64,000 bases of DNA from an uncultured Fibrobacterota bacterium (GCA_963753345.1 CAVWBU010000032.1:1-64000), one strand, 5' to 3'; shown: positions 559 to 18,781, counted from the stretch's first letter. Notes: a model not told the origin generated them from the letters alone. Translations and numbers: made by a program.

Positions 559-1476
559 ATGCAACAAGAGAAATCGAACCTGCAGAATCGGATCGAATCC
601 GGCAAGCCGATCGTCACGGCTGAAATCGCCCCGCCCGCGTCGTCTGACCCTGCAACCGTCCGCTCCCTGGTCAAAGGCTTTAGCGGCAAGGTCCATGCGC
701 TCGGCATCAGCGACAACAGGGACGGGGTTGCCATGTCGGCTGTTGCAGCCTCGGCCATTGCAGTCTCCGAAAACGTCGAGCCGATTTTGCACATGACCAC
801 GCGCGACCGTAACCGCACCGCGCTCGTGTCGGATTTTCTGGGCGCCCGGGCCCTGGGCGTGCGCAACATGCTGTGCACGAGCGGCACGCACCAGACCCTT
901 CATCCGTTTCGCGCGGCAAAGAACGTGTTCGACATCGACGCGACGATACTTCTTCAAAGCCTGCATAACCTGGGAAAAAACGCTTCGATCGTTGGTGAAG
1001 AAAATATCGACGGCGATACATCGTATTGCCTTGGTGCCGTGGCTTCGCCGTTTGCCGATCCGATGGAACTGCAGTTGCCTCGGCTTGCCCAGAAGATTTT
1101 CGTGGGCGCGCAATTCATTGTTACGGAACCGGTCTTCGACCTCGATCGTTTCGGCCTGTGGTGGAAGGAAGTGACCAATCGCGGGCTTCAGGAAAAGGCC
1201 GCGTTCATCGCAGGGATAAGAATATTGACCAGTGCCGAGACCGCAAAGGCGTTTGTTGAAAAGCGGCCGTTGCCGCTCGTGCCGGCATCGATTGTCGAGC
1301 GCCTGACTTCGAAAAAGGACAAGGCCGCGTGCCGGTCCGAAGGAATCGCTGTTGCCCAAGAAATCATGAATAAACTTTCGGCAGTGGCCGGCCTGCGGGG
1401 ATTTGAAATCGTGTGCGATGAAGACCACAACGCGGCGCTTGAAGTGCTGGCAAGCCTGAAATCGAAGATCGGATAG
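559..1476 (+). CDS. metF: methylenetetrahydrofolate reductase (MetF-like)
   Basis: TAEIAPP, ISDN, PILHMTTRDRNR, KIFVGAQFIVTEPVFD motifs. Confidence 0.85.
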   Translation: MQQEKSNLQNRIESGKPIVTAEIAPPASSDPATVRSLVKGFSGKVHALGISDNRDGVAMSAVAASAIAVSENVEPILHMTTRDRNRTALVSDFLGARALGVRNMLCTSGTHQTLHPFRAAKNVFDIDATILLQSLHNLGKNASIVGEENIDGDTSYCLGAVASPFADPMELQLPRLAQKIFVGAQFIVTEPVFDLDRFGLWWKEVTNRGLQEKAAFIAGIRILTSAETAKAFVEKRPLPLVPASIVERLTSKKDKAACRSEGIAVAQEIMNKLSAVAGLRGFEIVCDEDHNAALEVLASLKSKIG

Positions 1477-1481: not shown

Positions 1482-2888
1482 GTGCCCGCAAAATTCCACA
1501 TCAATACGCAGCCGACGCCGCCGCGCCTCAAGCCCGAAGGGAAGCTCGGCATTGTTGACTGGCGGGAAGACTGCGCAAGCTGCAAGAACTGCGTGAAGAA
1601 GGGGTGCGTCTACGGGCTGTACCGCGACGAGGCCGACGCCCTGCACGATGAACTCGGCTATCTCGACTACATTTACCAGTGCAAAGGCTGTCTCACCTGC
1701 ATCCAGAACTGCACCAAGAACATTCTCACCCGCGTTGAAAACCCGGAATACAAGAAGCTCGGCGACGCCTATTTCACGCCCGACATCGTGAGCACCACGT
1801 GGTATCAGGCCGAGACCGGCGCGGTCCCTGTGTCGGGCTGCGGCTACGGCGGGCCGTTTTCCGGCGCGGGCTTCGATTCCATGTGGACCGACATGTCCGA
1901 AATCGTGCGGCCCACGCGCGACGGCATCCACGGCCGCGAATACATCAACACCGGCGTCGACATAGGCCGCAAACAGGGCAGGCTCGTGTTTGACAACATG
2001 GAAATGCGCACCCCTGTCCTGCCGCGCCTGGTAAGCCCGCTGCCCATCATGTTCGACGACCTGCCGAAGCAATGGCGCCACAAACCCGTGGTGTCGGCGA
2101 TGGTGAAGGCGGGCGCGAACCTCGGCCTCTATTCCATGGTGTCCGGCGACCAGGTCGCGGCGCAGAGAAAAGCGCACCGCAATCACGTGGTGCCTCTTGT
2201 CAATCAAGACGGCACGTTTGCCGGGGAGAACATTGCCGATGCTCCCATGGTGATGGTTCCCGACTCTGAAAAGATCCTCGACGTCATCGCTGCGCTCAAG
2301 AAGGAGAACGGCACGCGGCTCGTTGGTGTGCGTGCAACGTCCGGGACCGAGGCGCATAACCGGGTGCTCTGGCTTGCACAGCAGGGCGTTGAAGTCATCA
2401 ATCTTGTATTTGACAGGCACGGCAGGGAAATCAATTCATCCACACCGCGCCACATGCGCGACGCGATACGGCAGGCGCATGGCGCGCTTGTAAAGACCTG
2501 CATCCGCGACGAGGTGACGCTGGTGACCTCGGGCGGCATCGGCCTGCCCGAGCACATGGCCAAGGCCATCATCTGCGGCGCGGACCTGGTGGCTGTCGAC
2601 GTGCCGCTCGTGATCGCGCTGGAATGCCGGCTGTGCGGCGAGTGCGAGCGCGGCGAGTGGTGCCAGGTGGACCTGGCGAACATCGACGAGGCATATGCGG
2701 TACGCAGGATAACCAACCTCATGGGTTCGTGGCACAGCCAGCTGCTCGAAATGCTCGGCGCCATGGGAATACGCGAGGCGCGCCGCCTGCGCGGCGAGGT
2801 GGGGCGGTGCATGTTCTTCGAGGACCTCGAGGCCGCCGCGTTCGGGAGAATTTTCGGGAAACGAAAAGATACCGTTGCAAGGGAATGA
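1482..2888 (+). CDS. 4Fe-4S + glutamate-synthase FMN-domain-like protein (degenerate motifs)
   Basis: N-terminal CxxCxxC and CKGCLTCIQNC; GFDSMWTDMSEIVRPTRDG; IRDEVTLVTSGGI...AKAIICGAD. Confidence 0.75.
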   Translation: MPAKFHINTQPTPPRLKPEGKLGIVDWREDCASCKNCVKKGCVYGLYRDEADALHDELGYLDYIYQCKGCLTCIQNCTKNILTRVENPEYKKLGDAYFTPDIVSTTWYQAETGAVPVSGCGYGGPFSGAGFDSMWTDMSEIVRPTRDGIHGREYINTGVDIGRKQGRLVFDNMEMRTPVLPRLVSPLPIMFDDLPKQWRHKPVVSAMVKAGANLGLYSMVSGDQVAAQRKAHRNHVVPLVNQDGTFAGENIADAPMVMVPDSEKILDVIAALKKENGTRLVGVRATSGTEAHNRVLWLAQQGVEVINLVFDRHGREINSSTPRHMRDAIRQAHGALVKTCIRDEVTLVTSGGIGLPEHMAKAIICGADLVAVDVPLVIALECRLCGECERGEWCQVDLANIDEAYAVRRITNLMGSWHSQLLEMLGAMGIREARRLRGEVGRCMFFEDLEAAAFGRIFGKRKDTVARE

Positions 2889-3026: not shown

Positions 3027-4591
3027 ATGACAACATCAACCAAAACACATCCCCAAAAAGTTGAAGATTTTTCCTCGCACCCGGACTTCGCCGAGGTTTC
3101 ACGCACGGTGCGGCAGGCGCTGCCGCGGTACCGCAACGAAATCGGCAAGTTCAGCATTCACCGTTCGTCGAAGTGCAAATCCTGCGGACGGTGCGTCGAG
3201 ATCTGCCAGCACGGCGTGCACAGCCGTCCGGCCGGGTACCGGCAGGTGATCCGGCCCTTCGATTACCGCTGCATCGGCCCGGATTGCGAGAAGACCGGCC
3301 GGTTCTGCATCACCAACTGCCCGCAGCAAGCCCTGTCGCTTTCCGAAAGCCCGGTCTTTAGGACCCTCGGCGATTATCGCTGGACGCCCGATCTGCTCTC
3401 GGCAAACTGGTTCATGGCCGAGACGGGCAAGAAGCCGCCGGCATTTCTCGAAAGTCAAATCGGCGCTTCGGGCGGCGGTTTCGACCGGATGCGGTTCGTG
3501 TTTCCCGACAAGGTCCCGGCGGGACTGCGGCGCGAGGACATCAACACCAAGCTGTTGCTTAACAAACGGAAAAACGATCCGCGGCCCAAGATCACCATCG
3601 ACGTTCCCTGGTACGGCGGCGGCATGTCGTTCGGCTCGACCAACATACGGGCGCAGCTCGGCAAGGTGCGCGCTGCAAAGGCCTGGAACACCTTTTCGTG
3701 CACCGGCGAGGGCGGGTATCCGGACCGATTTATTCCCTACAAAGACAACATGATCACCCAGGTCGCCACCGGCCTGTTCGGCGTGCGCGAGGAGACCATC
3801 CAGCGCGCGCGCATCGTGGAATTCAAGTATGCCCAGGGCGCAAAGCCGGGTCTTGGCGGCCACCTTCTGGGCGACAAGAACACGCCCGCGGTGGCGGCCA
3901 TGCGCGAGGCAGTGGTGGGCACGTCGCTGTTCTCGCCGTTCCCGTTCCACAGCGTGTATTCCATCGAAGACCACAAGAAGCACCTCGACTGGATCGCGCA
4001 TGTCAACAGGACAACGCTGCTTTCCGCCAAGGTGTCCACGCCCAACGACGTGGAAATGGTGGCGGTGGGAGCATACTGCGCCGGCGCGCACATCGTGCAC
4101 ATGGACGGCAGCTACGGCGGCACCGGCGCATCGCCCAACATCGCCAAGAAAAACATCGCCATGCCCATCGAATACGCGATAAGCAACGTTCACCAGTTCC
4201 TGGTGGACGAGGGCGTCCGCGACGAGGTCACGCTCATTGTTTCAGCGGCGGGATCCGCAATCCCTGGGACATCGCCAAGGCCATTGCCATGGGCGCGGAC
4301 GGCATTGTTATCGGCACCGCGGAACTGGTGGCGCTCGGGTGCATACGCTGCGGCTGCTGCGAAAGCGGCCGGGGATGCCCGCGCGGCATCTGCACCACCG
4401 ACCCCGAACTTCTCGAGCTGCTCACCGTGGACTGGTGCACGCAGCGGCTTGTCAATCTCCACAACGCGTTCAGGGAAATTCTTGTTGATATCCTTTACCG
4501 GCTGGGACTTGAATCGGTGACTGCGCTGCGGGGCAGGACCGATTTACTGATGCACCTTGATTACGACAACAAGAGAGACGGAACGAAATAG
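3027..4591 (+). CDS. 4Fe-4S + glutamate synthase FMN-binding subunit (archaeal GltB2 type); frameshift near 4243
   Basis: GGMSFGS, TGEGG, QVATGLFGV, EFKYAQGAKPGLGGHL; continues in another frame as SGGIRNPWDIAKAIAMGADG...GCIRCGCCESGRGCPRGICT. Confidence 0.85.
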
Positions 4592-4593: not shown

Positions 4594-7234
4594 ATGAGTA
4601 CGCACGCAAATTTTGACCGCGCACGCGCGTATGTCCGCAGCCGCGAAGCACTCCGGCCCGCCGGCGAGTGGTTCCAGAAGCCGCAGGAAGCGGAAGGCGG
4701 TTGCGGCGTCACGGGGTTTGCCTGCACCATTCCGGTGCGGCGGCAAGCACATCTACGAGCCGAGCATCCAGATGCGCAACCGCGGCAACGGCAAGGGCGG
4801 CGGCATCGCGGCGTGCGGGCTGGTGGCCGAGGATTTCGGCGTGTCGCGCAAGGTGCTCGAAGAAGATTACATTCTCCAGGTGGCGCTGCTCGATCCCACC
4901 GCAAAGGGCGAGGTCGAAAAGGAATTTGTCGAGCCGTTCTTCGACGTGCACCAAGGCGGGATGATCCCCACGGTCAAGGACTACCGCGACGTGCCGCTCC
5001 TTGTAGTCGAAGCCGCCCGACGTTGCGCGATATTTCGTGCGCGTAAAGCCCGGCGCTCTGGAAAAATTTGCGGTCGAGAAGAAACTGACCGGCCTTGCTC
5101 CGCGCGAGATCGAAGACGAGTTCGTGTTCCAGAATTCCGCAAGACTCAACAACCGGTTCTACGCGTCCCTCGGCGACAAGCGCGCGTTCGTGCTGTCGCA
5201 CGCCCGCAACCTCATCATTCTCAAGGTCGTGGGATACGCAGAGGCGGTAGTGCAGTACTACTGCATGGAAGATTCGCGGGCGCACGTATGGATCGCGCAC
5301 CAGCGGTATCCCACGCGCGGCCGCGTGTGGCACCCGGGCGGCTGCCATCCGTTCATCGGCATGAACGAGGCGCTCGTGCACAACGGCGACTTCGCCAACT
5401 ATCTTTCGGTGTGCGAATACCTTGCGCAGCGCAACCTGTTCCCGCAGTTCCTCACCGACACCGAAGCGTCCATCATGCTGTTCGACCTCATGAACCGCGT
5501 GTACAAGTATCCCGTCGAATACATCATCGAATCGCTCGCGCCCACCACCGAGCTCGACTTCGACCGCCTGCCGCCGGAGAAGCAGCATGTCTACCGCGAG
5601 ATCCAGACCACGCAGATCCACTCCTCGCCCGACGGGCCGTGGTTCTTCATCATCGCGCGCAACCTTGACAAAAAGGGATTCCAGCTCCTGGGCATCACCG
5701 ACACGGCCATGCTGCGGCCGCAGGTGTTCGCCCTGCAGGAGGGCGAGGTCTCCATCGGGCTCATCTGCTCCGAGAAGCAGGCCATCGACGCGACGCTGGC
5801 CAGCCTGCACGCCGAAGACCCGCGGTTTTCGCCCATTGCCGACAAATACTGGAACGCGCGCGGCGGAAGCTCCACCGACGGCGGCGCGTTCCTCCTCAAC
5901 GTGACGCCGAACGGCAGCGGGAACGGCCATGCGCCGTCGTACAATCTTTCGGTCACCAACAAGTTCGGCGCGAAGGTTTCTACAAGGCCAGGCCAGGTGC
6001 ATTGCGATTTGTCAAAACCGGCCGCCGTGCCCGCGGATGCGCACACCGACAGCGCAAAGATCGCGGAGCTTGCCGGCGTGGGCGACGCGGTTGCGCTGTA
6101 CGGGTTCCTGCGGGACGGCATTGACAAAATCGACTACGACCGCCTGCGCTTCCGTGCTGGCGGGATAGCCCTTGCGACCGCGCCGGCCAATCCGCAACTG
6201 GGCATTGACGCCCTCACGCTCGGAATAGACCGCAGGTATCCCACCGGCGCGAAGAAGCGCAGCTCGGTGGTGGCAATCTGCCGCCTTGGCCTGGAATCAA
6301 TTTTTGAAAAACAGCCTCTTTTCGGCGAAGAATCGAAAGCGGCGCTCCGCAGGATCACCTGGGAAACCCGCAAACGCCTGCGGGGGCCGGAGTCTCATGA
6401 GAAAACCCTGCTTGTTGACGCGCGCGGCTTTTCGGCCGAAGGCGAAAACAGCGACGCGTTTCTCGCCGTGGACGCGTATCATCTCGGATGGCGGCACATT
6501 ATCCACTATAATTCGCGCGGCACGCGTTTCCACGCAACCGGTTTCGGCCCGGCCACCGACGGACTGCGCATCGACTGCTACGACAATCCCGGCGACTACC
6601 TCGGCTCGGGCGTCGACGGCCTGGAGGCGTACGTTCATTGCAACGCGCAGGACCAGCTGTGCCAGATTTCCAAGCGCGGCAAGGTGGTGGTGTACGGCGA
6701 TGTGGGCCAGACGTTTTTGTACGGCGCCAAGGGCGGCGACATCTTCGTGCTGGGCAACGCGGCCGGACGGCCCATGATCAACGCCGTGGGAAAGCCGAAG
6801 GTCGTGATCAACGGCACGGCGTTGGACTTCCTCGCCGAATCGTTCATGGCCGGCGACGCGCTGGCGGGCGGCGGATTTGCAATTGTCAATGGCCTGCGCG
6901 TGGAAGACAACGGCGACATCGTAGCGCTCGACCTGCCGTATCCCGGCAGCAACCTGCTTGTCACTGGCGTCCGGCGGCGCGATTTACGTGCGCGACCCGC
7001 AAGCGCACGCTCGTGGGCGAGCAGCTCAACGGCGGCATATTCGGGAAGTTTGCAAATGAGGATTGGAAGCTCATCCTGCCGTATCTGCTGGAGAACGAGC
7101 GGCTGTTCGACATCAGGATTGAGCGCGACCTGCTCACCGTGGACGGTGCTGTCCGTAAGCCCGCGCAGGTGTACAGGAAGGTGATGCCGAAGGGAAAGTC
7201 GGCGGAGCTTGAGATCGAGGACGCAGGGGAATAA
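4594..7234 (+). CDS. glutamate-synthase-like Ntn amidotransferase + GXGXG domain fusion; frameshifts near 4740, 5005 and 6960-7005
   Basis: EGGCGVTG (Ntn Cys), RNRGNGKGGG, AHQRYPT, HPF, VHNGDFAN, TDTE; C-terminal GDVGQTFLYGAKGG...GNAAGRP. Confidence 0.85.
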
Positions 7235-7329: not shown

Positions 7330-8241
7330 ATGACTACCGAAACCGTAACTGTACAGAAATCAACCACACAAGCCAAGAAAGAGCCCGTGGGCGCGGTGCT
7401 CGTGTGCGGCGGAGGCATTGCGGGAATCCAGTCCGCGCTCGACCTCTCGGCCGCAGGGTTCTACGTGTATCTGGTTGAAGAAAGCCCCACCATCGGCGGC
7501 AACATGGCGCGGCTCGACAAGACGTTTCCCACGGGCGACTGCGCCACGTGCATCATTTCGCCCAAGGTTGTCGCGTGCATGCGCGACCTTAACATAGAAG
7601 TGATCACCATGGCCCAGGTAAAGGCGCTCTCGGGCGAGGCGGGGAACTTCAGGGCGACGCTTTCGGTGCGGCCGCGCTTTGTCAACGAGGACAAATGCAC
7701 CGGCTGCGGCGACTGCGTGGAGCGCTGCCCGGTGAGAAACATACCGCAGGCGGTTGCGGCGCCGGTCGCGGAGGCGGTGCTTGACAAACAAGACCAGGCG
7801 CTCCTTGATGATCTTATCTCCCGGCATGCGGGCGATCCGGGCGCGCTCATGCCTGTTCTGGAGGCGGTGAACAGGACGCGCGGCTATCTTCCGCGGCCGC
7901 TGCTCGAGCATGCGGCGGTGCGTCTCGACATTCCCCTTGCGCAAGTGCTCACGGTGGCGAGTTTTTACGATAAAATGGGGTTTAAGGCGCCGGGAAGGCA
8001 TGTGATCCAGTTGTGCAACGGCACGAGCTGCCATTCGCAGCGCTCCGGGGTATTGCTCCGGGCGCTGGAGAAAAAACTCGGCGTTTCCGAGGGCGGCACC
8101 GACAAATCGGGTCGCTTTACGTTAAAGACTGTCCGCTGCCTGGGCCTGTGCGCGCTGTCGCCGTCGATGCGCATCGACGACGTAAGCTTCGGCAAAGTAA
8201 ATGTAGACGACCTTGACGGGATACTGGGACAATTCAAATGA
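7330..8241 (+). CDS. HdrA N-terminal fragment (FAD Rossmann + 4Fe-4S) fused to NuoE-like 2Fe-2S domain
   Basis: GGGIAGIQSALDL...IGGNMARLDKTFPTGDCATCI...CTGCGDCVERCP, then LMPVLEAV...GYLP...VASFY...CNGTSCH...CLGLCALSP. Confidence 0.85.
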   Translation: MTTETVTVQKSTTQAKKEPVGAVLVCGGGIAGIQSALDLSAAGFYVYLVEESPTIGGNMARLDKTFPTGDCATCIISPKVVACMRDLNIEVITMAQVKALSGEAGNFRATLSVRPRFVNEDKCTGCGDCVERCPVRNIPQAVAAPVAEAVLDKQDQALLDDLISRHAGDPGALMPVLEAVNRTRGYLPRPLLEHAAVRLDIPLAQVLTVASFYDKMGFKAPGRHVIQLCNGTSCHSQRSGVLLRALEKKLGVSEGGTDKSGRFTLKTVRCLGLCALSPSMRIDDVSFGKVNVDDLDGILGQFK

Positions 8242-9979
8242 CCACAACGGTAAAATCCGCAGCTGATCTCGACCTGCTCGCACAGGCGGGCAGCGCTACG
8301 TTGTACCCCAGGGGGCTTAAAATCCTCGTTGGTTCCGCCACGTGCGGCCTTGCCATGGGCGCGGCAAAGGTCGAAGAGGCCGCAATCGCAACGGTCAAGA
8401 AGTTCAAGGCCGACGTTGCGGTAAAGCGCACGGGCTGCATAGGGTTCTGCAGCCAGGAACCGCTGCTCGACCTGGTGCTGCCGAACGGCCCGCGCATAAG
8501 CTTTGGTTCCATGACGCCGCAGAAAACGCGCGCCCTGCTCTCGGCATTTTTGACAAAAGGCGATTTCGGTGGAGTGATCCCGCTCGGCCGGTTTTCCGGC
8601 GAAGAGCACGTTTTGACGGGTGAGGTGCATCGCTACGGTTCCTCGCCGGTCGGCGGAAGGCATTCCGGAATGGTCGAGCCTCGATTTCTTCAGGCTCCAG
8701 AAAAAAGTAATCATGCGCAACTGCGGGTCCATAGACCCCATGTCGATTGAGGAAAGCGTTGCCCGCGGTTCGTACCGCGGCGCGCTCAAGGCGCTTTTGT
8801 CAATGAAGCCTGAACAGGTGCTCGACGAGATATCCGCCTCCGGCCTTCGCGGCCGCGGCGGCGCGTATTTCCCCACGGGCCAGAAGTGGCGGTTCGCGCG
8901 GAACGCCAAGGGCGATGTCAAATATGTGGTATGCAACGCAGACGAGGGCGCGCCTGGGTCGTCGATGGACCGCACCGTGCTCGAAGGCGACCCGCACGCG
9001 ATCATCGAGGGCATGATCGTGGGCTCGTACGCGATCGGCGCGCAGCAGGGCTTTGTCTACGTGCGCAGCGAATACCCGCTCGCCATCGCCATCCTCGAAC
9101 ATGCCATTGCCGAAGCGGAAAAGCACGGGCTCCTCGGCGACAACATCTTTGGAAGCGGCTGGTCGTTCTCACTGTCGGTCCGCCGCGGGGCAGGCGCCTA
9201 TGTGTGCGGCGAGGAAACCGGCCTCATCGAATCCATCGAAGGTCATGCGGGCGAACCGCGGGGCAGGCCGCCGTTCCCCGTGACCCATGGCCTGTGGGGA
9301 AAACCCACGGTGGTGAACAATGTAAAAACATGGGCCAGCGTCGCGCCCATCCTCACCAGGGGCAGTGCATGGTACGCATCCATGGGGACCAAGAACACTA
9401 CGGGCACCACGGTGTTTTCGCTCGAAGGGTCGGTAAACAACGCCGGGCTCGTTGAGGTGCCGTTCGGCATCACGCTCCGCGACATGATTTACAAAATGGG
9501 AGACGGCGTGCGCGGGGGCAAGGAATGCAAGGCCGTGCAGGTGGGCGGTCCGTCCATCGGCTGCATCCCGCCGTCCATGCTCGACCTCGCCATCGACTCG
9601 GTTGACGTTCCGGGAAAATCGGCAAACATGGGGACCGGCGGCATCATCGTGATGGACAGCGACTCGTGCGTGGTTGACATGACGAGATTCCTTCTCGGAT
9701 TTTTCGTCGACGAATCGTGCGGCAGGTGCACGCCGTGCCGCGAAGGCACCAAACAGATGTACGGCGTGCTCGAGAACAATTTGCGAAGGCAAAGGCGGCG
9801 CCGATTCAGTTGACAAATTGGAGCGGCTCAGCAGGGCCATGAACGCCGCCTCGGTGTGCGGGCTCGGCACCACCGCGTCGGGCCCGGTGACAAACGCGAT
9901 TCTCCATTTCCGCGATGAAATCGATGCGCACATAGCGGGCCGCAGGTGCCCGGCGGGCGTGTGCGCGATGGGGAAGTGA
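8238..9979 (+). CDS. NuoF/HydB-like NAD(H) dehydrogenase subunit with N-terminal 2Fe-2S domain; frameshifts near 8645 and 9780
   Basis: ATCGLAMGA...TGCIGFCSQEP; SGLRGRGGAYFPTG, CNADEGAPG..MDR, GAGAYVCGEETGL, ESCGRCTPCREG; ends CPAGVCAMGK* without a C-terminal 2x4Fe-4S domain. Confidence 0.85.
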
Positions 9980-10008
9980 GGAACCGGAACATTGCAATGC
10001 TCCTAATT

Positions 10009-10076
10009 GCCGTTCGTGCTGAGCTCCTCGTCGAAGCACGAACACCGCGCCCTTCGACAGGCTCAGGGCGAACGGT
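10009..10076. repeat. cttcgacaggctcag-type inverted repeat
   Basis: ccgttcgtgctgagc...gtcgaagc / cttcgacaggctcagggcgaacgg. Confidence 0.75.
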
Positions 10077-10119
10077 CATCGGTCATGCAGTAGATGAGTA
10101 TTGACGGAAAAAGAAACCA

Positions 10120-13100
10120 ATGGAACAGGTATCAACAGACAAAATCACCGTAACCATTGACGGACGCACATCAGACGTTCCACAGGGCACCACCATACTC
10201 AATGCGGCGCGGCAGATGGGCATTACCATACCCACGCTGTGCAATTACCGGGGCATGGAACCCATAGGCGCGTGCCGCGTGTGCATCGTGGAACTTGCAA
10301 CGCCGCGCGGCCCGAAAATCGTTTCGTCGTGCAATTACCCTGTGGAAAGCAACATGAAGGTCTCGACCGATACCCAGGGGGTACGCGACAACAGGAGGAT
10401 CATCCTCGAACTCCTTCTCGCCCAGGCGCCGGCGTCGAAGAAAATCGCGGAATTCGCAGCCGCGCTCGGCGTCACGTCCACGCCGTTTGAAAAAAATCCT
10501 GACGGCGATTGCATCCTGTGCGGGCTGTGTGTGAAAGTATGCGGCGACCTCATGGGCCGCGGCGCGATAAGCATGTTCGGCCGCGGGGCCGGCCGCGAAG
10601 TGAAACCTGCGTTCGACGAAAAGAGCGAGCAATGCCAGGTGTGCGGCGCCTGCGATTTCGTGTGCCCTGCGGGAACGTCCGACCACACAACGGTCGCCTC
10701 GCGCCGGACAAAGAAGCACGCCACCGCGTTCAACCAGTTTCTCGAAGCAAGGCCCAACATCGATTTTGCGCACCCGCAGGCGGTTCCGCGCGTGCCGGCC
10801 ATAGACCCGATGTCGTGCGTCAAATTGACAACAGGCGAATGCGGCCTGTGCTCGCAGGTGTGCGGCGCGGGCGCCATCGACTACGAGCAGAAAGAGACCA
10901 CCAGGGAAATCGACGTGGGCGCGGTGCTCCTCACGCCCGGATTTTCCGCGTTCGAACCGTCGCGGCGCCTCGAATTCGGGTCCGCCTACGACACCAACGT
11001 GATCACCAATCTGCAGTTCGAGCGGATTCTGTCGGCAGCGGGCCCCACCAAGGGCTACGTGCGCCGGCCCTCGGACGATGCGACGCCGAAGAGCATCGCG
11101 TTTATCCAGTGCATCGGCTCGCGCGACGCGCTGTGCGGCAACGACTACTGCTCCTCGGTGTGCTGCATGGCCGCCACCAAGGAGGCGATTCTCGCAAAGC
11201 AACACGAGCCCGCGACTGCGGTCACCATCTACTACATGGACCTCCGCGCCTACGGTAAGGATTTCGACCGTTACTACAACCGCGCAAAGGAACTCGGGAT
11301 TTCCTACGTGAGGTGCCGCCCTTCCTCGGTTGAGGAAGTGAACGGGAACAAGAACCTGCGCATCACCTATATGAGCGACGAAAACAGGAGCGTCACCGCG
11401 GAGCACGACCTCGTTGTTCTGTCGCTCGGGCTGGAGCCCAGCGCAAGCCTGCGGCAGCAGGTCGAGCGTTTCAACGTGATGGTGAACGACTGGGGATTCG
11501 TTGCCACGCGCGAACTTCATCCGCTGGAAACGTCGCGTCCCGGCGTGTTCGTGGGCGGCGCGATGAGCGAGCCCAAGGACATTCCCGACACCGTAATGCA
11601 GGCATCGGCCGTTGCGGCAAAGGCCATGGAGCTCCTCGCCCCCGCGCGCGGCACCCGCGTGAAGACCAAGGTCTATCCGCCGGAGCGCGATGTGACCGAC
11701 GAACCGCCGCGCATCGGCGTGTTCATTTGCCACTGCGGCAGCAACATCGCGTCGGTGGTCGACGTGGAAGCGGTTGTGCAGCGCACGCGGCAGCTGCCGT
11801 ACGTGGTGCTTGCGGAACGCAACGTTTACACATGCGCAGACGACACGCAGGACCAGATAAAGGAAAAGATCATAAAGCACCGGCTCAACCGCGTGATCGT
11901 TGCGTCGTGCACGCCGCGCACGCACGAGGCAATATTCCGCGACACGCTGCGCGACGCGGGGCTCAACCAGTACCTGCTCGAAATGGCCAACATCCGCGAC
12001 CAGTGCTCGTGGGTCCACGGCGGCGAGCCCGACAAGGCGACGGAGAAGGCCAAGGACCTTGTGCGCATGACCGTGGGCCGCGTGGCCGGGCTCATGCCCC
12101 TGGCCGAGGAGACCGTGCCGGTAAAGGGCGCGGCGCTTGTGATCGGCGGCGGCCTTGCGGGCATGACCGCGGCGCTTGCCGTTGCCGGCCAGGGCTATCC
12201 CGTGCACCTTGTCGAAAAGGAAGAAGTCCTCGGCGGCATGGCGGCCGATGTGGGGGTCACGCTCGACGGCGACAGCGTCCCGGCGCACGTGTCGGCGCTT
12301 GTCGCGCGGGTAAACGGCCACAAAAAGATATCGGTGCACCTCAATTCGCGCGTGACCAAGGTTGACGGCCACGTGGGCGATTTCACCTCGGACATTCTTA
12401 CGGGTCAATCAACCGCGCAGGTCGAGCACGGCGTGGTGATCGTGGCCAGCGGCGCAAAGGAATTAAAACCGCAGTCGTTCGGTTACGGAAAAAGCGACAA
12501 GGTGATGACGCAGCTCGAACTCTCCAGCCGCATCGCGAGGGACGAACTTTCTTTGCCGGAAAAATCGACCATCGTGATGATTCAGTGCGTGGAGCAGAGA
12601 AACGACGAGCGTCCGTATTGCTCCAGGGTCTGCTGCACCACGGCGGTCAAGAACGCGCTGCTTCTTCGCGCGCGATATCCAAAAGCGAAAATCCTGGTGC
12701 TGTACCGCGAAATGCGGACCTACGGGTTCCGCGAGGCGGCATACCGCGAGGCGCGGGAAAAAGGGATCATGTTCATCCGCTACGACGACAAGCGCCTGCC
12801 GGAAGTGGCTATTGACAACGGGCTCACCGTGCGCGTGACCGACAAGATCCTCGGCCGCGAGCTCATCATGACTCCCGACCTCCTCGTGCTCGCCGCGCCG
12901 ATCGTTGCGCGCGACGACCGCCAGGAGCTGTCGGAGCTGCTGCGCGTGCCGCTCAACGCCGACGGGTTTTTCCTCGAGGCGCACGTGAAGCTGCGGCCGG
13001 TCGATTTCGCGAGCGAAGGACTGTTCCTGTGCGGCACCGCGCACTCGCCCAAGTTCATCACCGAGACCATTTCGCAGGCCAGCGCGGTCGCCGGGCGCGC

Positions 13101-13440
13101 GGCGTCGATTCTCTCCCGTAAACTAATGCCCGTGGGCGCGCAGACCGCGTGGGTGGACCCGGACAAGTGCGTTGCCTGCATGACGTGCGTGCACGTGTGC
13201 CCGTACATGGCGCCGCAGATCGGCAAGGACAACAAGGCCGAGGTCCAGGCCGCGGTGTGCATGGGGTGCGGAAGCTGCACCGCGGCGTGCCCGGCAAAGG
13301 CGATTTCGCTGCACCATTACCTTGACGTGCAGATACTCGGCGCGATCAACAGCCTGCTCGCCGGGACGGTTGCGGAAAAGCCGGTCGAGGCCAATTACCT
13401 TGAACAGGTTGGCGTTGCGCAGCCGAGATGGAAGAAATAG
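10120..13440 (+). CDS. hdrA: NuoG-like N-terminal Fe-S module fused to the remainder of a long-form HdrA
   Basis: IPTLC..GACRVCIVE..SC, CILCGLCVKVC, CQVCGACDFVCP; then PQAVP, FIQCIGSRD, YCSSVCC, IGVFICHCG, ANIRDQCSWVH, GGGLAG, HVKLRPVD. Confidence 0.85.
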   Translation: MEQVSTDKITVTIDGRTSDVPQGTTILNAARQMGITIPTLCNYRGMEPIGACRVCIVELATPRGPKIVSSCNYPVESNMKVSTDTQGVRDNRRIILELLLAQAPASKKIAEFAAALGVTSTPFEKNPDGDCILCGLCVKVCGDLMGRGAISMFGRGAGREVKPAFDEKSEQCQVCGACDFVCPAGTSDHTTVASRRTKKHATAFNQFLEARPNIDFAHPQAVPRVPAIDPMSCVKLTTGECGLCSQVCGAGAIDYEQKETTREIDVGAVLLTPGFSAFEPSRRLEFGSAYDTNVITNLQFERILSAAGPTKGYVRRPSDDATPKSIAFIQCIGSRDALCGNDYCSSVCCMAATKEAILAKQHEPATAVTIYYMDLRAYGKDFDRYYNRAKELGISYVRCRPSSVEEVNGNKNLRITYMSDENRSVTAEHDLVVLSLGLEPSASLRQQVERFNVMVNDWGFVATRELHPLETSRPGVFVGGAMSEPKDIPDTVMQASAVAAKAMELLAPARGTRVKTKVYPPERDVTDEPPRIGVFICHCGSNIASVVDVEAVVQRTRQLPYVVLAERNVYTCADDTQDQIKEKIIKHRLNRVIVASCTPRTHEAIFRDTLRDAGLNQYLLEMANIRDQCSWVHGGEPDKATEKAKDLVRMTVGRVAGLMPLAEETVPVKGAALVIGGGLAGMTAALAVAGQGYPVHLVEKEEVLGGMAADVGVTLDGDSVPAHVSALVARVNGHKKISVHLNSRVTKVDGHVGDFTSDILTGQSTAQVEHGVVIVASGAKELKPQSFGYGKSDKVMTQLELSSRIARDELSLPEKSTIVMIQCVEQRNDERPYCSRVCCTTAVKNALLLRARYPKAKILVLYREMRTYGFREAAYREAREKGIMFIRYDDKRLPEVAIDNGLTVRVTDKILGRELIMTPDLLVLAAPIVARDDRQELSELLRVPLNADGFFLEAHVKLRPVDFASEGLFLCGTAHSPKFITETISQASAVAGRAASILSRKLMPVGAQTAWVDPDKCVACMTCVHVCPYMAPQIGKDNKAEVQAAVCMGCGSCTAACPAKAISLHHYLDVQILGAINSLLAGTVAEKPVEANYLEQVGVAQPRWKK

Positions 13441-13453: not shown

Positions 13454-13936
13454 ATGTCCAAACAACCCATCATCCTCGCCTTCTGCTGCCACTACTGCGC
13501 GTACGCGGCCGCCGACATGGCGGGCTCCATGCGGCTTTCCTATCCGTCAAACGTGCGCGTGCTGCGGTTCCCGTGCACGGGCAAGATCGAGGAGAACCAC
13601 ATCCTCGCCGCGTTCGAGCGCGGGGTGGACGGCGTGATGGTGGCGGGCTGCCTCGAAGGCGGCTGCCACTTTCTCGAAGGCAACCTGCGCGCGCGCAGGC
13701 GGGTGGAGCGGGTAAAGCGGATTCTTGACGAAATCGGAATAGAGCCCGAGCGCCTCGAAATGTACAACCTGTCGTCGGCCGAAGGGCCGCGGTTCGCGGA
13801 GATCGCAAAGGAAATGGCGGCACGCATTGCGCCGCTGGGCGCAAGCCCGCTTGCCGTTTCCGAAGCGGAGCTGGAACAGGGGATCGGCGACATGCAGGTG
13901 GAGGCAATGGCCGCAATCCAGGGAGGATCAGCATGA
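13454..13936 (+). CDS. mvhD: MvhD hydrogenase Fe-S subunit
   Basis: AFCCHYCAYAAADMAG...PCTGK...GCLEGGCHFLEGN. Confidence 0.9.
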   Translation: MSKQPIILAFCCHYCAYAAADMAGSMRLSYPSNVRVLRFPCTGKIEENHILAAFERGVDGVMVAGCLEGGCHFLEGNLRARRRVERVKRILDEIGIEPERLEMYNLSSAEGPRFAEIAKEMAARIAPLGASPLAVSEAELEQGIGDMQVEAMAAIQGGSA

Positions 13937-14694: not shown

Positions 14695-15156
14695 ATGACA
14701 ACAACAAGATCGGACGTTATCGTCGTTGAGGAACTCGATCCGGGTTTCCGGGATGAAGTGGCGCTCATGCCGGGCGGGGAGAACATCAGGAAATGCTATG
14801 CCTGCGGCACGTGCGCGGCAGGCTGCCCGGTCACGAACATCGACGACGGCTACAACTGCAGGACCATCATCCGCAAAGTGCTGTACGGGATGCGCGAGGA
14901 AGTGCTGAGCTCAAAGGAAATCTGGCTCTGCATGATGTGCTACCGGTGCTACGCGCGCTGCCCCCAGCAGGTGAATTTCACCGACATCATGCGGGCGCTG
15001 CGGCACATGGCGGTGCGCGACGGGTTTGCGCCGGCGGAAATGCTTGCCAAAGAGGATGAGGCCGATAAAAAGGCCCAGACGCTCAGGCGTGACTTTGTAA
15101 AGGCAGCGACGGCCGGGAAGAAACCGGCAGCGAAGAAGCAAAGCAAGAAAAAATGA
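14695..15156 (+). CDS. hdrC: heterodisulfide reductase subunit C
   Basis: CYACGTCAAGCP and IWLCMMCYRCYARCPQ. Confidence 0.85.
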   Translation: MTTTRSDVIVVEELDPGFRDEVALMPGGENIRKCYACGTCAAGCPVTNIDDGYNCRTIIRKVLYGMREEVLSSKEIWLCMMCYRCYARCPQQVNFTDIMRALRHMAVRDGFAPAEMLAKEDEADKKAQTLRRDFVKAATAGKKPAAKKQSKKK

Positions 15157-18100
15157 CTATGCACAAGAAAGCAATGGTGATAGGCGGGGGCGTTGCCGGG
15201 ATTCAGGCCGCGCTCGATCTTGGCGACATGGGCGTGGAAACCTTCCTCGTGGAGAGCGAGCCGTCCATAGGCGGGCGCATGGCCCAGCTCGACAAGACGT
15301 TTCCCACCAACGACTGCGCCATGTGCATCCTCTCGCCCAAGCTGGTGCAGGCCGGCGGCCACCCCTACATCCGCATTTTGAGCAACAGCGTGGTGACCGG
15401 TATGACCGGATCGCCGCCCAGCCTTTCGGTGACGGTGAAGAAGAAACCGCGCTACGTTGACGAAAGCAAATGCACGGGCTGCGGCATCTGCGTCACCAAG
15501 TGCCCCACCAAGGTGCCCGACCCCTACAACAAGGGGCTGTCGCAGACCAGGGCCATCCGCATTCCCTTTCCGCAAGCAGTGCCCGCGGTCGCCGCTATCG
15601 ACGCATCGAAGTGTCTATACCTGAGGAAGGGCACGTGCAGGCTGTGCGAAAAGTCGTGCGGAACAGGCGCGATCGACTTTACGCAGAAGGAAGAGACGGT
15701 CGTCATCGACGTCGGCTCCGTTATCCTCGCCAGCGGCACAAAGGAGTTCGACGCGAAGCTCAAGGCCGAATACGGCTACGGTGTTTTCCCGAACGTGGTA
15801 ACGAGCATCGAGTATGAGCGGTTGCTCTCCGCGTCCGGTCCCACGGGCGGACACATTGTCCGGCCGTCCGACAAAAAGGAACCGAAGAAGATTGCTATTC
15901 TGCAGTGCGTGGGTTCGCGGGATATTGCCTCCGGCAACGAGCACTGCTCCGCGATATGTTGCATGCAGGCGGCCAAGGACGCCATTATAACCCAGGAGCA
16001 CCTGCCCAAGGCGAAGACGACCATCTTTTACATGGACATCCGCGCCTACGGCAAAGGGTTCGACAGGTTTATCGACAAGGCAAAGGACCGGCACGACACG
16101 ACGTTTACAAACGGCAGGATCGCGTCGGTTGAAAGCAATCCGGCCACCAACGACCTTGACATACGATATATCACGCAGGATGGGAAGACCGCCTCGGCGC
16201 GGTTCGACCTCCTGGTGCTCTCGGTGGGCATCCAGCCGTCGGCCGCGTCGATGACCACCGCGAAGGGCCTTTCGGTCGCTCTTGACGGATCGGGATTCGT
16301 GCGCATCGGCGAAATGGACCCGGTCTCCACGAGCGCGCCGGGCGTTTTCGTGTGCGGCAGCGTAAGCGGTCCCAAAGACATTCCCGAGTCGGTGATCGAG
16401 GCCAGCGGCGCCGCCTCGGCAGCGGCCTCGGCGCTGGGCAACCTTGCGGTTAAGGAGATCAAGGCCGACATGCCCGCGCAGAAGGACCTTCGCGGCGAGC
16501 CTCCGAGGATCGGCGTATACGTGTGCCGTTGCGGCATCAACATCGCCTCGGTGGTCGACGTGCCGTCCGTGGTAAAGTACGCAACGTCGCTCCCGGGCGT
16601 GAAGTTCGCGGGTGAGCTCATGTTTTCGTGCGCGCAGGATTCGCAAAAGGCAATCAAGGCCGCGATAGAGCAGCACAAACTCAACAGGCTCGTGGTTGCC
16701 GCCTGCACGCCGCGCACGCACGAGCCCCTGTTCCAGAAAACGCTCGAAAGCGCGGGCATCAACCCGTACCTGTTCGAATTCGCCAACATACGCGAGCATT
16801 GTTCGTGGGTGCACCAGAAGGAGCCCGAAAAGGCGACGGTCAAGGCGTGCGGCCTGGTGCGCGCGGCAGTCGCAAAGGTAAAGCTCAGCGTGCCGCTGTA
16901 CAAGAAGAGCATGGGCGTCAACAAGGGCGCGCTGGTGATCGGCGGCGGGCTTGCCGGCATGACCGCGGCAATCGACCTTGCCGACCAGAACTACCCGGTG
17001 ACGCTCGTCGAGAAAGAGGCGCAGCTGGGCGGCAACCTGCTGCACGTTTACACGACCCTGTCGGGCGAAGAGACAGCGCCCAAGCTCGCCGCCCTGATGA
17101 ACAAGGTGACGAAGCATGCAAACATTCGTACCTTCACGAACGCGAAGATCAAGAATGTTGCCGGATACGTGGGTAATTTCAAGACCGAACTCGAAAGCGG
17201 GCACACCTTCGAACACGGCGTGGTGATCCTTGCCTCGGGCGCGAACCAGAATGAGCCCGCCGAATACTACTTTGGTAAGGACAAACGCATCATCACCCAG
17301 CGGCAGTTCGAAGAGATCCTGCACGAAGAAACAACCAAAGGTAATTCCAATCTACAATCTAAATTCTACAATCTACATTCTATTGTGATGATCCAATGCG
17401 TCGGCTCCCGCGAGGGCGAGCGCGACTACTGCAGCCGCGTGTGCTGTTCCAATGCCATCAAGAATGCGATAAAGGCCAAGGAACTCAATCCCAAGGCTGC
17501 CGTTTATGTGCTGTTCCGCGACATCCGGAGCTACGGCTTGCGGGAGAAGTATTATCGTTTGGCAAGAGAAAAGGGAGTGATTTTCATCAGGTTTGACAAG
17601 GACAAAAAACCCTCGGTGACGATCAAGGACGGCAAACTCGCCGTATCCGTGCGTGATAATATTCTCGGCAGGAATGTTTCAATTCATCCGGATCTGCTGG
17701 TTCTCAGCACGGGCATCGTGGCGAACCCGGACAACAAGACGCTGTCGCAGTTTCTCAAGGTGCCGCTGGAGCAGGACGGGTTCTTCCTCGAAGCGCATGT
17801 CAAGCTGCGCCCGGTGGATTTCGCCACTGACGGCGTTTTCGTGGCGGGCCTGGCGCATTATCCCAAGGACATGGGCGAGACCATTGCGCAGGCGCGCGCT
17901 GCAGCCGGCCGGGCTGCCACGGTGCTGTCGAAGAGCACGCTTGAATCCGAAGGGAAAATCTCGCTCGTCCGCGCGGAACTATGCAGCGGGTGCGGCGCGT
18001 GCGAGGCGGTGTGCGCGTACAACGCAATAGAGGTTGATCCGGTGCGGAATGTCGCTGTTGTCAACGAAGCCCTGTGCAAGGGCTGCGGCGCGTGCGCCGC

Positions 18101-18176
18101 GTCGTGCCGGGCAGGGGCGGTGGATTTGAGCGGGTTCCGGAACGAGCAGATTTTGAGCGTGCTGAGTACGATATAA
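15153..18176 (+). CDS. hdrA: long-form heterodisulfide reductase subunit A (two Rossmann motifs)
   Basis: GGGVAGIQAAL, LDKTFPTNDC, QCVGSRD, IGVYVCRCG, ANIREHCSWVH, GGGLAG, C-terminal 2x4Fe-4S. Confidence 0.92.
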   Translation: MTMHKKAMVIGGGVAGIQAALDLGDMGVETFLVESEPSIGGRMAQLDKTFPTNDCAMCILSPKLVQAGGHPYIRILSNSVVTGMTGSPPSLSVTVKKKPRYVDESKCTGCGICVTKCPTKVPDPYNKGLSQTRAIRIPFPQAVPAVAAIDASKCLYLRKGTCRLCEKSCGTGAIDFTQKEETVVIDVGSVILASGTKEFDAKLKAEYGYGVFPNVVTSIEYERLLSASGPTGGHIVRPSDKKEPKKIAILQCVGSRDIASGNEHCSAICCMQAAKDAIITQEHLPKAKTTIFYMDIRAYGKGFDRFIDKAKDRHDTTFTNGRIASVESNPATNDLDIRYITQDGKTASARFDLLVLSVGIQPSAASMTTAKGLSVALDGSGFVRIGEMDPVSTSAPGVFVCGSVSGPKDIPESVIEASGAASAAASALGNLAVKEIKADMPAQKDLRGEPPRIGVYVCRCGINIASVVDVPSVVKYATSLPGVKFAGELMFSCAQDSQKAIKAAIEQHKLNRLVVAACTPRTHEPLFQKTLESAGINPYLFEFANIREHCSWVHQKEPEKATVKACGLVRAAVAKVKLSVPLYKKSMGVNKGALVIGGGLAGMTAAIDLADQNYPVTLVEKEAQLGGNLLHVYTTLSGEETAPKLAALMNKVTKHANIRTFTNAKIKNVAGYVGNFKTELESGHTFEHGVVILASGANQNEPAEYYFGKDKRIITQRQFEEILHEETTKGNSNLQSKFYNLHSIVMIQCVGSREGERDYCSRVCCSNAIKNAIKAKELNPKAAVYVLFRDIRSYGLREKYYRLAREKGVIFIRFDKDKKPSVTIKDGKLAVSVRDNILGRNVSIHPDLLVLSTGIVANPDNKTLSQFLKVPLEQDGFFLEAHVKLRPVDFATDGVFVAGLAHYPKDMGETIAQARAAAGRAATVLSKSTLESEGKISLVRAELCSGCGACEAVCAYNAIEVDPVRNVAVVNEALCKGCGACAASCRAGAVDLSGFRNEQILSVLSTI

Positions 18177-18183
18177 GGAAAAA

Positions 18184-18273
18184 CCTCACCCCGCCCTTCG
18201 GGCACCCCTCTCCGCTAGGAGAGGGGAAAATCTTTCACCCCTTCTCCGGGCGGAGAAGGGGAGGGGGATGAGG
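18184..18273. repeat. cctcacccc/cccctctcc hairpin repeat
   Basis: same family as 7235-7293. Confidence 0.8.
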
Positions 18274-18302
18274 TCAAGAGAAAAAACACGAGGAAGATAT
18301 TC

Positions 18303-18749
18303 TTGACTAAATCAACCACCAGCGAACCCACCATCGTTGCCTTTCTTTGCAACTGGTGCTCCTACGCGGGCGCGGACCTTGCCGGCGTGAGCAGGCTGCA
18401 ATATCCGGCCAACGTGCGCGTGATCCGCGTGCCGTGCTCGGGACGCGTGGACCCGCTTTACATAATCAAGGCGCTGCAGGAAGGCGCGGACGGCGTGCTG
18501 GTTTCCGGCTGTCATCCGGGCGACTGCCATTACATTTCGGGCAACCTGGTGGCGCGCAGGAAATTCGCCATGCTCAAGGGCTTTCTCGAATACCTCGGCA
18601 TCGAACCCGAGCGCGTGCAGTTTTCTTGGGTGAGCGCGTCCGAGGGAGGCAGGTTCGCTTCGCTGATCGAGAAAGTGGTGAGCGATGTGAAGAAGCTGAA
18701 CGCGCCGCCGAAGTTTGCGCGGCAGCGCGCGGATGCGGTGCCTGCTTGA
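18303..18749 (+). CDS. flxD: MvhD/FlxD Fe-S subunit
   Basis: AFLCNWCSYAGADLAG...VPCSGRVD...GCHPGDCHY. Confidence 0.85.
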   Translation: MTKSTTSEPTIVAFLCNWCSYAGADLAGVSRLQYPANVRVIRVPCSGRVDPLYIIKALQEGADGVLVSGCHPGDCHYISGNLVARRKFAMLKGFLEYLGIEPERVQFSWVSASEGGRFASLIEKVVSDVKKLNAPPKFARQRADAVPA

Positions 18750-18781
18750 CGGAAGATATTATTGGAAAAAGGGAATACAGG

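Follow-up and report, generated by a model that had tools for sequence, protein, structure and literature searches.

The question raised by positions 7330 to 13440 of the DNA stretch considered here (the window, 64,000 nucleotides from an uncultured Fibrobacterota bacterium, GCA_963753345.1 CAVWBU010000032.1:1-64000) is whether heterodisulfide reductase subunit A (HdrA) can be encoded in two pieces with an NADH dehydrogenase module lying in between, and what such an arrangement would do. HdrA is, to our knowledge, one of only four known scaffolds for flavin-based electron bifurcation, and its electron supply decides what it can drive. The reading favoured here, to which we assign a probability of roughly 70%, is that NuoE, a HydB-like NuoF and the iron-sulfur N-terminus of NuoG take the place of the residues that separate the two [4Fe-4S] motifs in the ferredoxin insert of a type II HdrA, with HdrA produced in two pieces that reassemble and are fed by NADH. 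With the separate BamGHI arm and the NfnB/GltD insert as the other two, this would be a third type of connection between NAD(H) and HdrA, and among the forms met here only the Nuo cassette cuts the flavoprotein in two. The three genes concerned are the following.

7330 to 8241, plus strand: HdrA(N)-NuoE fusion (P0001), 303 amino acids, assigned by Pfam, BLASTP and PDB alignment
8238 to 9979, plus strand: nuoF, HydB/BfuB-like, with an N-terminal thioredoxin-like domain, an FMN/NADH domain and an N3-type [4Fe-4S] cluster (PF01512, PF10589)
10120 to 13440, plus strand: NuoG(N)-HdrA(C) fusion (P0002), 1106 amino acids, assigned by Pfam, BLASTP and PDB alignment

Architecture of the split HdrA

The first ~136 residues of P0001 represent HdrA, with the flavin adenine dinucleotide (FAD) binding fold, a cysteine pair and the first 4Fe-4S motif, and are followed by NuoE. 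In the open reading frame (7294/7330-8241, 315 amino acids) Pfam recognizes FAD_oxidored/Rossmann at 35-72, a Fer4 motif at 130-148 and 2Fe-2S_thioredx, equivalent to NuoE, at 172-314 (PF01257, 126 bits). When read against an intact HdrA paralogue encoded downstream in the window (P0003), residues 24-136 of P0001 align with residues 8-120 at 50% identity (BLASTP, E 2e-35), while residues 23-139 correspond to residues 146-261 of the solved HdrA 5odc_A. The piece thus contains a thioredoxin-reductase-like FAD domain with its N-terminal GxGxxG (G27-G32) and DCxxC pair (C71/C74), followed by the first CxxCxxCxxxCP motif (C123-C133) and, in the NuoE part, by the 2Fe-2S cysteines C229, C234, C270 and C274, all of which are invariant across 18 P0001-type sequences from several phyla. 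Past the first motif, the string 'IPQAVAAP' resembles 'PQAVP' in the linker, which may be chance.

P0002 starts as NuoG and ends as HdrA, with Fer2_4 at 7-85 and Fer4_7 at 131-185 followed by HdrA-type Pyr_redox_2 and a C-terminal Fer4 in Pfam. Its N-terminal part holds the ligands of a NuoG-type 2Fe-2S cluster (C41, C52, C55, C71) and of two 4Fe-4S clusters (C131-C141, C172-C182) and is connected by a linker to the HdrA part. The latter begins with the second cysteine motif (C233-C248) and the remainder of the first thioredoxin-reductase-like FAD domain (TrxR1), to which K354 belongs, and continues with an HdrA N-domain-like module (528-~660), a second thioredoxin-reductase-like domain (TrxR2, 672-~1000) and a C-terminal 2x4Fe-4S domain. 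From about residue 200 to the end the protein follows intact HdrA; residues 162-1079 align with residues 98-1007 of P0003 (BLASTP, 45% identity over 929 columns, E 0), and residues 204-443, 528-760 and 901-1080 correspond to residues 264-500, 2-235 and 468-650 of 5odc_A. With one thioredoxin-reductase-like domain on each side of an N-domain-like module and a ferredoxin domain at the C-terminus, the protein has the composition of a type II (BamE-like) HdrA. K354 aligns with K409 of 5odc_A, which we take to be the lysine beside N5 of the flavin, and is invariant in 18 P0002-type sequences, as are the cysteines of the NuoG-type 2Fe-2S and 2x[4Fe-4S] clusters, the second HdrA motif, the FAD-adjacent cluster and the ligands within the second HdrA unit and the C-terminal ferredoxin domain.

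As the HdrA part of P0001 extends to residue 261 of 5odc_A and P0002 resumes at residue 264, the break lies between the two cysteine motifs of the inserted ferredoxin domain. The motifs, both invariant, are therefore found on different chains, C123-C133 on P0001 and C233-C248 on P0002. Fer4_20, the domain to be expected of an HdrL or type III HdrA, is absent from P0001 and P0002, the insert here being NuoE, NuoF and NuoG(N). A preliminary description of the locus had proposed just this, a NuoE-NuoF-NuoG(N) module within the ferredoxin insert that gives rise to two reciprocal fusions, and Pfam, BLASTP against P0003 and the 5odc_A alignment bear it out at the positions stated, where the sequence motifs it quoted are present as well.

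The spacer between nuoF and the P0002 gene (9980 to 10119, 140 nt) contains an inverted repeat, recognized by eye, of perfectly matching 9-bp arms around a loop of 14 nt. Related loci were collected by a pattern scan with one genome per species, and the best 80 of 591 relatives are considered throughout; in the closest of them (L005) the spacer is missing and the two genes abut.

Proposed electron path and points that weigh against it

In the favoured reading, HdrA is encoded in two halves, and either end of the NADH dehydrogenase cassette is joined to one of them. For the FAD of TrxR1, P0001 would contribute the Rossmann motif and cysteine pair and P0002 the remainder of the domain with Lys354, and each of the two clusters in the ferredoxin insert would take ligands from P0001 as well as from P0002. 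NADH would reduce the flavin mononucleotide (FMN) in NuoF, from where electrons would pass via the N3-type cluster to the NuoG-type 2Fe-2S and the two 4Fe-4S clusters of P0002, and further via the rebuilt ferredoxin insert to the FAD of HdrA, such that NAD(H) would stand in for ferredoxin on this branch, the site being the one at which HdrA of methanogens reduces ferredoxin. The other branches, namely the FAD-adjacent 4Fe-4S cluster, the C-terminal ferredoxin domain and the adaptor protein MvhD, are predicted to serve a MetF/MetV methylenetetrahydrofolate reductase and a split glutamate-synthase-like iron-sulfur flavoenzyme, both encoded in the same operon, and in most phyla HdrBC in addition (HdrB was not found in this genome). 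For type III HdrA, the insert is described as the ferredoxin-reduction site of HdrA 'repurposed' for NADH (PMC12054007). As the cassette enters this site, electrons may flow in either direction, with or without bifurcation at the FAD.

Several observations weigh against this reading. The CCG/HdrB domain (PF02754) has no match in the whole, 94% complete genome (the control was found in 12 of 14 genomes), and without HdrB this HdrA has no outlet of the usual high-potential kind, with the acceptor being a guess. Reductions of the MetFV and glutamate synthase type are exergonic with NADH, which leaves the need for an HdrA-type coupling unexplained. A canonical MetF (307 bits) is encoded elsewhere in the genome, and the MetF of the operon is divergent (77 bits). 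A PDB sequence search gave no match for the first of two GltB-like proteins and none for the amidotransferase-GXGXG protein, two parts of the putative glutamate-synthase-like enzyme. Finally, the second of two breaks in nuoF takes the fourth cysteine of the N3 cluster out of the main frame, and the cassette as written in the assembly could not work.

Frameshifts in nuoF and upstream genes

The start of nuoF overlaps the stop of the preceding HdrA(N)-NuoE gene by 4 nt. Its coding sequence extends over three frames (8238-~8650, ~8659-9775 and 9779-9979) with +1 frameshifts near 8650 and ~9774; NADH_4Fe-4S (PF10589) is matched at positions 1-39 in the main frame and at positions 35-85 in the next +1 frame (last 66 residues). 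The preliminary description had placed nuoF between the two fusions; the gene is present there, though not as a single open reading frame, and with an N-terminal thioredoxin-like domain that had been passed over. Altogether, six surplus single letters at five sites (4244-4246, 4741, 5006, ~8650 and 9774) break three genes within 5.6 kb, and P0001, P0002, MvhD, MetV and the intact HdrA are unbroken over 8 kb.

Were the frameshifts in nuoF, in the amidotransferase-GXGXG gene and in the second gltB-like gene real, the operon would be decaying in this organism and the split HdrA would be a relic here that works elsewhere, an explanation which has to be taken seriously, even if we hold it to be unlikely. 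None of the six extra letters between 4244 and 9774 is located in a long homopolymer. Support from public data was derived from Logan contigs of peat and freshwater-sediment metagenomes (four runs from two studies, 90-99% alike); among the runs listed for the stretch, no RNA run was found. At 9774, the depth of contigs without the letter of the window is 8.1 of 15.1 in run X1, 10.9 of 10.9 in X2, 10.5 of 10.5 in X4 and 0 of 5.31 in X5; the letter is missing in three of the four runs, but X5 and about half of X1 retain it, so that the frameshift may be a real variant, which adds to the observations against a working cassette. At 4244, 4246, 4741 and 5006, on the other hand, every covering public contig lacks the letter of the window; the region of the first nuoF frameshift (8609-8655) lies outside all public contigs listed. 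The surplus letters cluster where the public assemblies are short and fragmented, as in strain mixtures, which favours consensus errors over decay. Decay is further at odds with the unbroken genes around the breaks and with the related loci, where the nuoF pieces are in one frame in 37 of 40 and of which L005, L006 and 29 others have intact orthologues. The surplus letters are therefore probable consensus errors in a strain-mixed stretch.

Type of NuoF

The 31 intact nuoF orthologues are single open reading frames, 29 of them of 580-637 amino acids and two of 1059 amino acids, in all of which C36, C67, C71, C494, C497, C500 and C540 are kept. The N-terminal thioredoxin-like domain (8238-~8640) has no Pfam match; its counterpart in the L005 orthologue can be aligned to the N-domain of 9n5u_B, a Bfu-type NfnB chain. 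In the gene of the window, the FMN domain follows it in the +1 frame. Bfu-type B subunits score best among the PDB matches of the L005 orthologue, 9n5u_B with 563 bits versus ~373 bits for complex-I-type Nqo1. Judged from the orthologues, as the gene of the window is frameshifted, the protein has the N-terminal thioredoxin-like 2Fe-2S domain, the FMN domain and the N3-type cluster of BfuB; the C-terminal 2x[4Fe-4S] ferredoxin domain of BfuB is missing in the lineage of the window. Residues 28-576 of the L005 orthologue (580 amino acids) correspond to residues 6-535 of 9n5u_B and the alignment stops there, at 535 of 602, and the proteins of the window, L005 and L006 all end soon after CPAGVC. 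This holds up the earlier claim that NuoF lacks the C-terminal 2x4Fe-4S domain. Across the 31 orthologues, 18 are short, 11 have a ferredoxin-like two-motif C-terminus and two are different, as called by eye from the last 45 residues and not by Pfam. The nearest outgroup of the clade of the window, L029, has a long nuoF, so the domain was probably lost in the lineage of the window.

The kinship to Bfu raises the alternative that NuoE and NuoF form a true Bfu-type bifurcating core like BamGH, which would co-oxidize NADH and reduced ferredoxin and feed electrons of ~-400 mV into HdrA, with two coupled bifurcation sites as a result. The PDB matches, the thioredoxin-like domain with its three cysteines conserved in all orthologues and the two-motif C-terminus of 11 orthologues are in line with such a core, for which class II benzoyl-CoA reductase sets a precedent (cryo-EM preprint 10.64898/2026.04.10.717634). 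True Bfu cores, however, all keep clusters that are missing from non-bifurcating homologues, as stated for the family (PMC9304861), and the early end of NuoF in the lineage of the window, with most orthologues (18 of 31) being short, makes this alternative rather improbable. The 'simple NADH input' of the preliminary description is thus a reasonable inference for the lineages with a short NuoF, although it fails for the family as a whole, of which 11 of 31 members keep the ferredoxin domain.

In two split-type loci of Acidobacteriota (L050 and L052), the 1059-amino-acid frame of nuoF is ~470 residues longer than elsewhere and ~1.7 kb separate the last nuoF match from the next gene.

Reassembly of the two halves

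Neither the first motif on P0001 nor the second motif on P0002 has a partner in cis, C131-C182 of P0002 being a complete pair of its own, so that the ferredoxin insert can only form from the two chains together. A complex model of P0002 186-520 with P0001 1-150, FAD and two clusters scored 0.91 in three of three runs, the highest score among three controls being 0.00; at least 84% of contacts are shared between the runs, the predicted local confidence (pLDDT) of the partner is at least 81 and strands from both chains pair with each other in the Rossmann sheet. The mark applied is reached by 116 of 157 solved complexes and by two of 215 mismatched pairs, and a pass reports likeness to solved intact HdrA structures, neither binding nor behaviour in the cell, which tempers its weight. 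We infer from the model that P0001 and P0002 reassemble, with the FAD site of TrxR1 and two iron-sulfur clusters built across the subunit interface. That the first FAD domain has to form in trans had been anticipated in the preliminary description, which had also suggested the modelling of the halves; besides the score, the invariance of both cysteine motifs, of GxGxxG and of Lys354 speaks for it.

The two halves might instead stay apart, in which case the HdrA part of P0001 would be a vestigial extension in front of NuoE and P0002 would work by its second FAD domain only. That HdrA domains can lose function is shown by BamE, the second FAD of which is present, yet judged non-bifurcating (10.64898/2026.04.10.717634). 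In the split HdrA, all cofactor-binding residues of the N-terminal piece are invariant across phyla, the two motifs lack cis partners and the complex model supports assembly, so that separate halves appear very unlikely.

Occurrence of the fusions

The HdrA(N)-NuoE fusion occurs in 47 of the 80 related loci, which belong to about ten phyla and are located in part on contigs of >1 Mb. In 40 of the 41 fusion loci with at least 700 nt downstream nuoF is next, the exception (L038) having a run of N at this place, and 32 of the 33 fusion loci with at least 2.9 kb downstream encode the NuoG(N)-HdrA(C) fusion. A large protein collection contains 1644 relatives of P0001 (E<=1e-3), with both PF12831 and PF01257 in 119 of 120 of those listed, and 1098 relatives of residues 1-330 of P0002 (E<=1e-30), hence >1,000 protein clusters for each fusion. 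The domain-architecture check called for in the preliminary description thus found both fusions well beyond the window. Within the phylum of the window, full-length fusions were present in eight of 151 sampled genomes. The taxa with related loci comprise Fibrobacterota/Chitinispirillaceae, the kin of the window with 75-77% identity, Planctomycetota, Deferrimicrobium, Desulfuromonadaceae, Geobacteraceae, Armatimonadota, Gemmatimonadota, Verrucomicrobiota, Acidobacteriota and others, and the split form is found in Planctomycetota, Fibrobacterota, Desulfobacterota-like lineages and others, with peat, soil and sediment as habitats.

Read support across both junctions had been asked for. The junction at 7740 is bridged by contigs of three public runs from two studies; the junction at 10720 is spanned by no listed contig and rests on the related loci (32 of 33). 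The split HdrA architecture is not a misassembly. That the fusions are an artefact of joined unrelated contigs can practically be dismissed, as the genome is indeed a 55-contig metagenome-assembled genome with local indel problems, but the same fusions recur in many independent assemblies and in >1000 protein clusters each, and 7740 is bridged in two studies.

In databases the two fusions bear generic names only ('NuoE', 'heterodisulfide reductase subunit A', 'FAD-dependent oxidoreductase'), with the consequence that genome-based redox models of these anaerobes miss the split HdrA. A literature search of partial coverage retrieved no description of an HdrA split by NuoEFG, in agreement with the earlier statement that the architecture was not known as described, though a listing may exist. 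The split HdrA is real, widespread and apparently undescribed, with a function that can be proposed from its parts.

Interchangeable cassettes at the ferredoxin insert

The remaining 33 of the 80 loci contain the same operon with HdrA as a single open reading frame, in the gene order mvhD-like, metF, two gltB-like genes, amidotransferase-GXGXG, hdrC, hdrB, hdrA, mvhD and metV. In 25 of these loci HdrA comprises 1483-1690 amino acids (counted from stop to stop) and contains an insert of ~470 residues between the same two motifs, which is composed of Fer4_20 and Pyr_redox_2 (GltD/NfnB-like) in six of six tested; in L053, L080 and L083 HdrA has no insert. A ~30-residue linker follows the Nuo cassette and precedes the NfnB-like cassette in the alignment, with both cassettes between the two cysteine motifs. 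One identical insertion point for both cassettes was considered and is rejected, the linker being on opposite sides.

A maximum-likelihood tree of the shared HdrA part was built from 55 rows (24 split, 25 insert and six plain forms), with 29 of the 80 loci dropped as no single match spanned the shared part. Split and insert forms interleave in this tree, the starred branches of which force at least six changes of split state. A single origin of the split form is rejected by the approximately unbiased test (p 6e-29 against one split clade), for a group that was named after the tree had been seen, which lessens the force of the test. The split locus L010 and the insert locus L049 are 87-92% identical in DNA sequence over the flanking genes and both HdrA ends, the cassette (10358-13352 in L010, 7009-8538 in L049) being the sole difference. 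This near-identity and the interleaved tree indicate that cassettes have been exchanged between near-identical operons, which argues for one shared task of both, the coupling of NAD(P)H to this site of HdrA. NuoE, NuoF and NuoG(N) can accordingly be viewed as a putative interchangeable NAD(H) module wired into the ferredoxin-reduction site of HdrA. The natural cassette swaps provide ready-made matched pairs for the effect of the input module on HdrA chemistry.

As a wider and highly tentative suggestion, the ferredoxin-reduction site of HdrA may be a recombination hot spot, occupied by an NfnB-like cassette, a short NuoEFG, a Bfu-type NuoEFG or none, and the enzymes may form an undescribed class with NAD(H) on the 'ferredoxin' branch and the other two branches leading to the MetFV folate reductase and the split glutamate synthase. 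If so, the glutamate-synthase-like module might be the second acceptor that has long been sought for Hdr-type methylenetetrahydrofolate reductases, and one-carbon reduction would be tied to nitrogen assimilation in one flavin-based coupling machine.

Relation to characterized systems

The closest characterized systems are BamEFGHI and HdrL, with HdrL/type III HdrA being the closest in design, and the likeness to both noted in the preliminary description is apt. The Bam complex of Geobacter metallireducens (BamBCDEFGHI), as described in the preprint (10.64898/2026.04.10.717634), shares the tandem fused-dimer HdrA, a module of NuoE/NuoF/NuoG(N) type (BamG/H/I), the NuoG-type subunit of which has N-terminal clusters only, and an MvhD adaptor (BamF); Lys280 of BamE is the analogue of the flavin lysine of HdrA. 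In Bam, however, each of the five proteins has its own gene, electrons from BamI enter BamE at its C-terminal ferredoxin domain, BamH has retained the ferredoxin domain that is absent from the C-terminus of NuoF in the lineage of the window and the acceptor is a tungsten enzyme, whereas here the cut in HdrA lies inside the ferredoxin insert, the two pieces are joined to NuoE and NuoG(N), and the partners are MetFV- and GltB-like. The Pfam family of tungsten aldehyde oxidoreductases (BamB/BamC-type) was found in none of the 15 open reading frames scanned in 1482-21553, the remaining genome not having been searched for it. The structures of class II benzoyl-CoA reductase named in the preprint are not among the PDB matches listed for P0001, P0002 and NuoF.

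HdrL of Desulfobacterium autotrophicum (PMC2702500) and the type III, NfnB-inserted HdrA of ANME-1 and Bathyarchaeota (PMC9012536, PMC12054007) share an NAD(P)H module between the motifs of the ferredoxin insert and an adjoining MvhD. There, it is a single GltD/NfnB-like domain in one polypeptide, whereas here three genes of complex-I/Bfu lineage split the host gene. Among the related loci, the HdrL-type form occupies the same operon as the Nuo cassette and is exchanged with it.

MetFV-HdrABC-MvhD of Moorella thermoacetica (Mock et al., 2014, via PMC5861303) has MetF, MetV, MvhD and a two-FAD HdrA co-encoded, as is the case here (PF02219 with 77 bits, PF12225 with 112 bits, PF02662 with 170 and 87 bits), with NADH as the donor there and as the predicted donor here. 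Like the Moorella system, most related loci carry HdrC and HdrB, in contrast to the genome of the window, which lacks HdrB. Distinct from the Moorella system as described in this source are the putative NADH input via NuoEF(G), the split glutamate-synthase-like enzyme and the second MvhD.

With the BfuABC family (PMC9304861), similarity is at the level of the subunits, NuoE, NuoF and NuoG(N) being most similar to BfuC, BfuB and BfuA, respectively, with 9n5u, 7t2r, 7q4v and 9mqx as best PDB matches. The BfuA-like part has no histidine-ligated cluster, as in type 2 BfuA. In contrast to the family as described there, the invariant BfuBC core with five BfuB clusters is incomplete here through the missing C-terminal two-cluster domain, and the BfuA- and BfuC-like parts are both fused to HdrA pieces. 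Unfused nuoEFG-mvhD-hdrA gene neighbourhoods have been reported from Desulfotignum phosphitoxidans (PMC4046663).

Operon and genome context

From ~80 to 21,550, the plus strand of the window is a single run of co-oriented, closely spaced genes, which beyond the three genes above comprises the following features.

81 to 554, plus strand: MvhD-like protein, the first of two in the operon (PF02662 FlpD, 86.8 bits), syntenic with L005:2712-3269 and L017:210-722
517 to 1476, plus strand: MetF-like methylenetetrahydrofolate reductase, divergent, of MetFV type (PF02219, 77 bits)
1482 to 2888, plus strand: GltB-like protein 1, a 2x4Fe-4S N-terminus with a weak glutamate-synthase FMN domain (PF01645, 46 bits; Fer4_9)
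3027 to 4591, plus strand: GltB-like protein 2, Fer4 with a glutamate-synthase FMN domain (PF01645, 194 bits)
4594 to 7184, plus strand: class-II glutamine amidotransferase fused to a GXGXG domain (PF13522, PF01493)
13454 to 13936, plus strand: MvhD, 2Fe-2S adaptor (PF02662, 170 bits), start picked by alignment with L005
13933 to 14625, plus strand: MetV, partner of MetF (PF12225, 112 bits), located after mvhD in related loci
14695 to 15156, plus strand: HdrC-like 2x4Fe-4S protein (Fer4_8/Fer4_17)
15153 to 18176, plus strand: intact two-domain HdrA paralogue P0003, 1007 amino acids, with neither split nor insert (NF040770, 1002 bits at a cut-off of 1100)
18803 to 21553, plus strand: three Flx/sulfhydrogenase beta-gamma-like genes (~18803-19696, 19728-20699, 20699-21553; Pfam Fer4_22, FAD_binding_6, NAD_binding_1, DHODB_Fe-S_bind)

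None of the 17 operon proteins reaches a curated NCBIfam cut-off. The true start of the MetF-like gene is probably near 560-580; its L005 orthologue matches the MTHFR half of NF006396 with 152 bits, under the cut-off of the model. The glutamate-synthase-like enzyme is composed of the two Fer4-FMN proteins and the amidotransferase-GXGXG fusion. GltB-like protein 1 is kept upstream in most related loci, and in GltB-like protein 2 the frame change near 4244-4246 leaves the C-terminus in a frame different from that of L005. The amidotransferase-GXGXG protein is encoded by one gene for 879-888 amino acids in relatives; in the window a three-frame reading against L005 and L010 locates two +1 frameshifts near 4741 and 5006. 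The L005 orthologue of the HdrC-like protein matches the HdrC model TIGR03290 with 90 bits, again under the cut-off.

An operon in which HdrA goes together with MetF/MetV, a second MvhD and a divergent glutamate-synthase-like enzyme in split form is conserved across many phyla, whatever the form of HdrA (L005, L017, L053, L058 and most others). An upstream HdrC-like match is found in 61 of the 80 related loci and HdrB is present in L017; the Fibrobacterota loci L005, L006 and L029 have no hdrCB upstream of the split HdrA.

The genome, a Fibrobacterota-type metagenome-assembled genome from a peat-like habitat, contains an AcsB/CdhC-like gene with an open frame of 1174 amino acids and a gene for formyltetrahydrofolate synthetase (G000:C52:36487-36951, G000:C42:26941-28560). 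As markers of the Wood-Ljungdahl pathway, the two indicate that a folate one-carbon pathway is present.

Directly downstream of the operon with the split form, positions 14695-21553 encode a second HdrA system, consisting of the HdrC-like protein, the intact HdrA and the Flx/sulfhydrogenase-like genes. The starts of the latter are approximate, their gene limits having been borrowed from L048, and their NCBIfam matches are ShyB/HydG/AsrAB-like, all under cut-offs. They are a second FAD/NAD-type input module beside the intact HdrA, and the locus thus carries, side by side, two HdrA systems that differ in their NAD(P)H-type input module.

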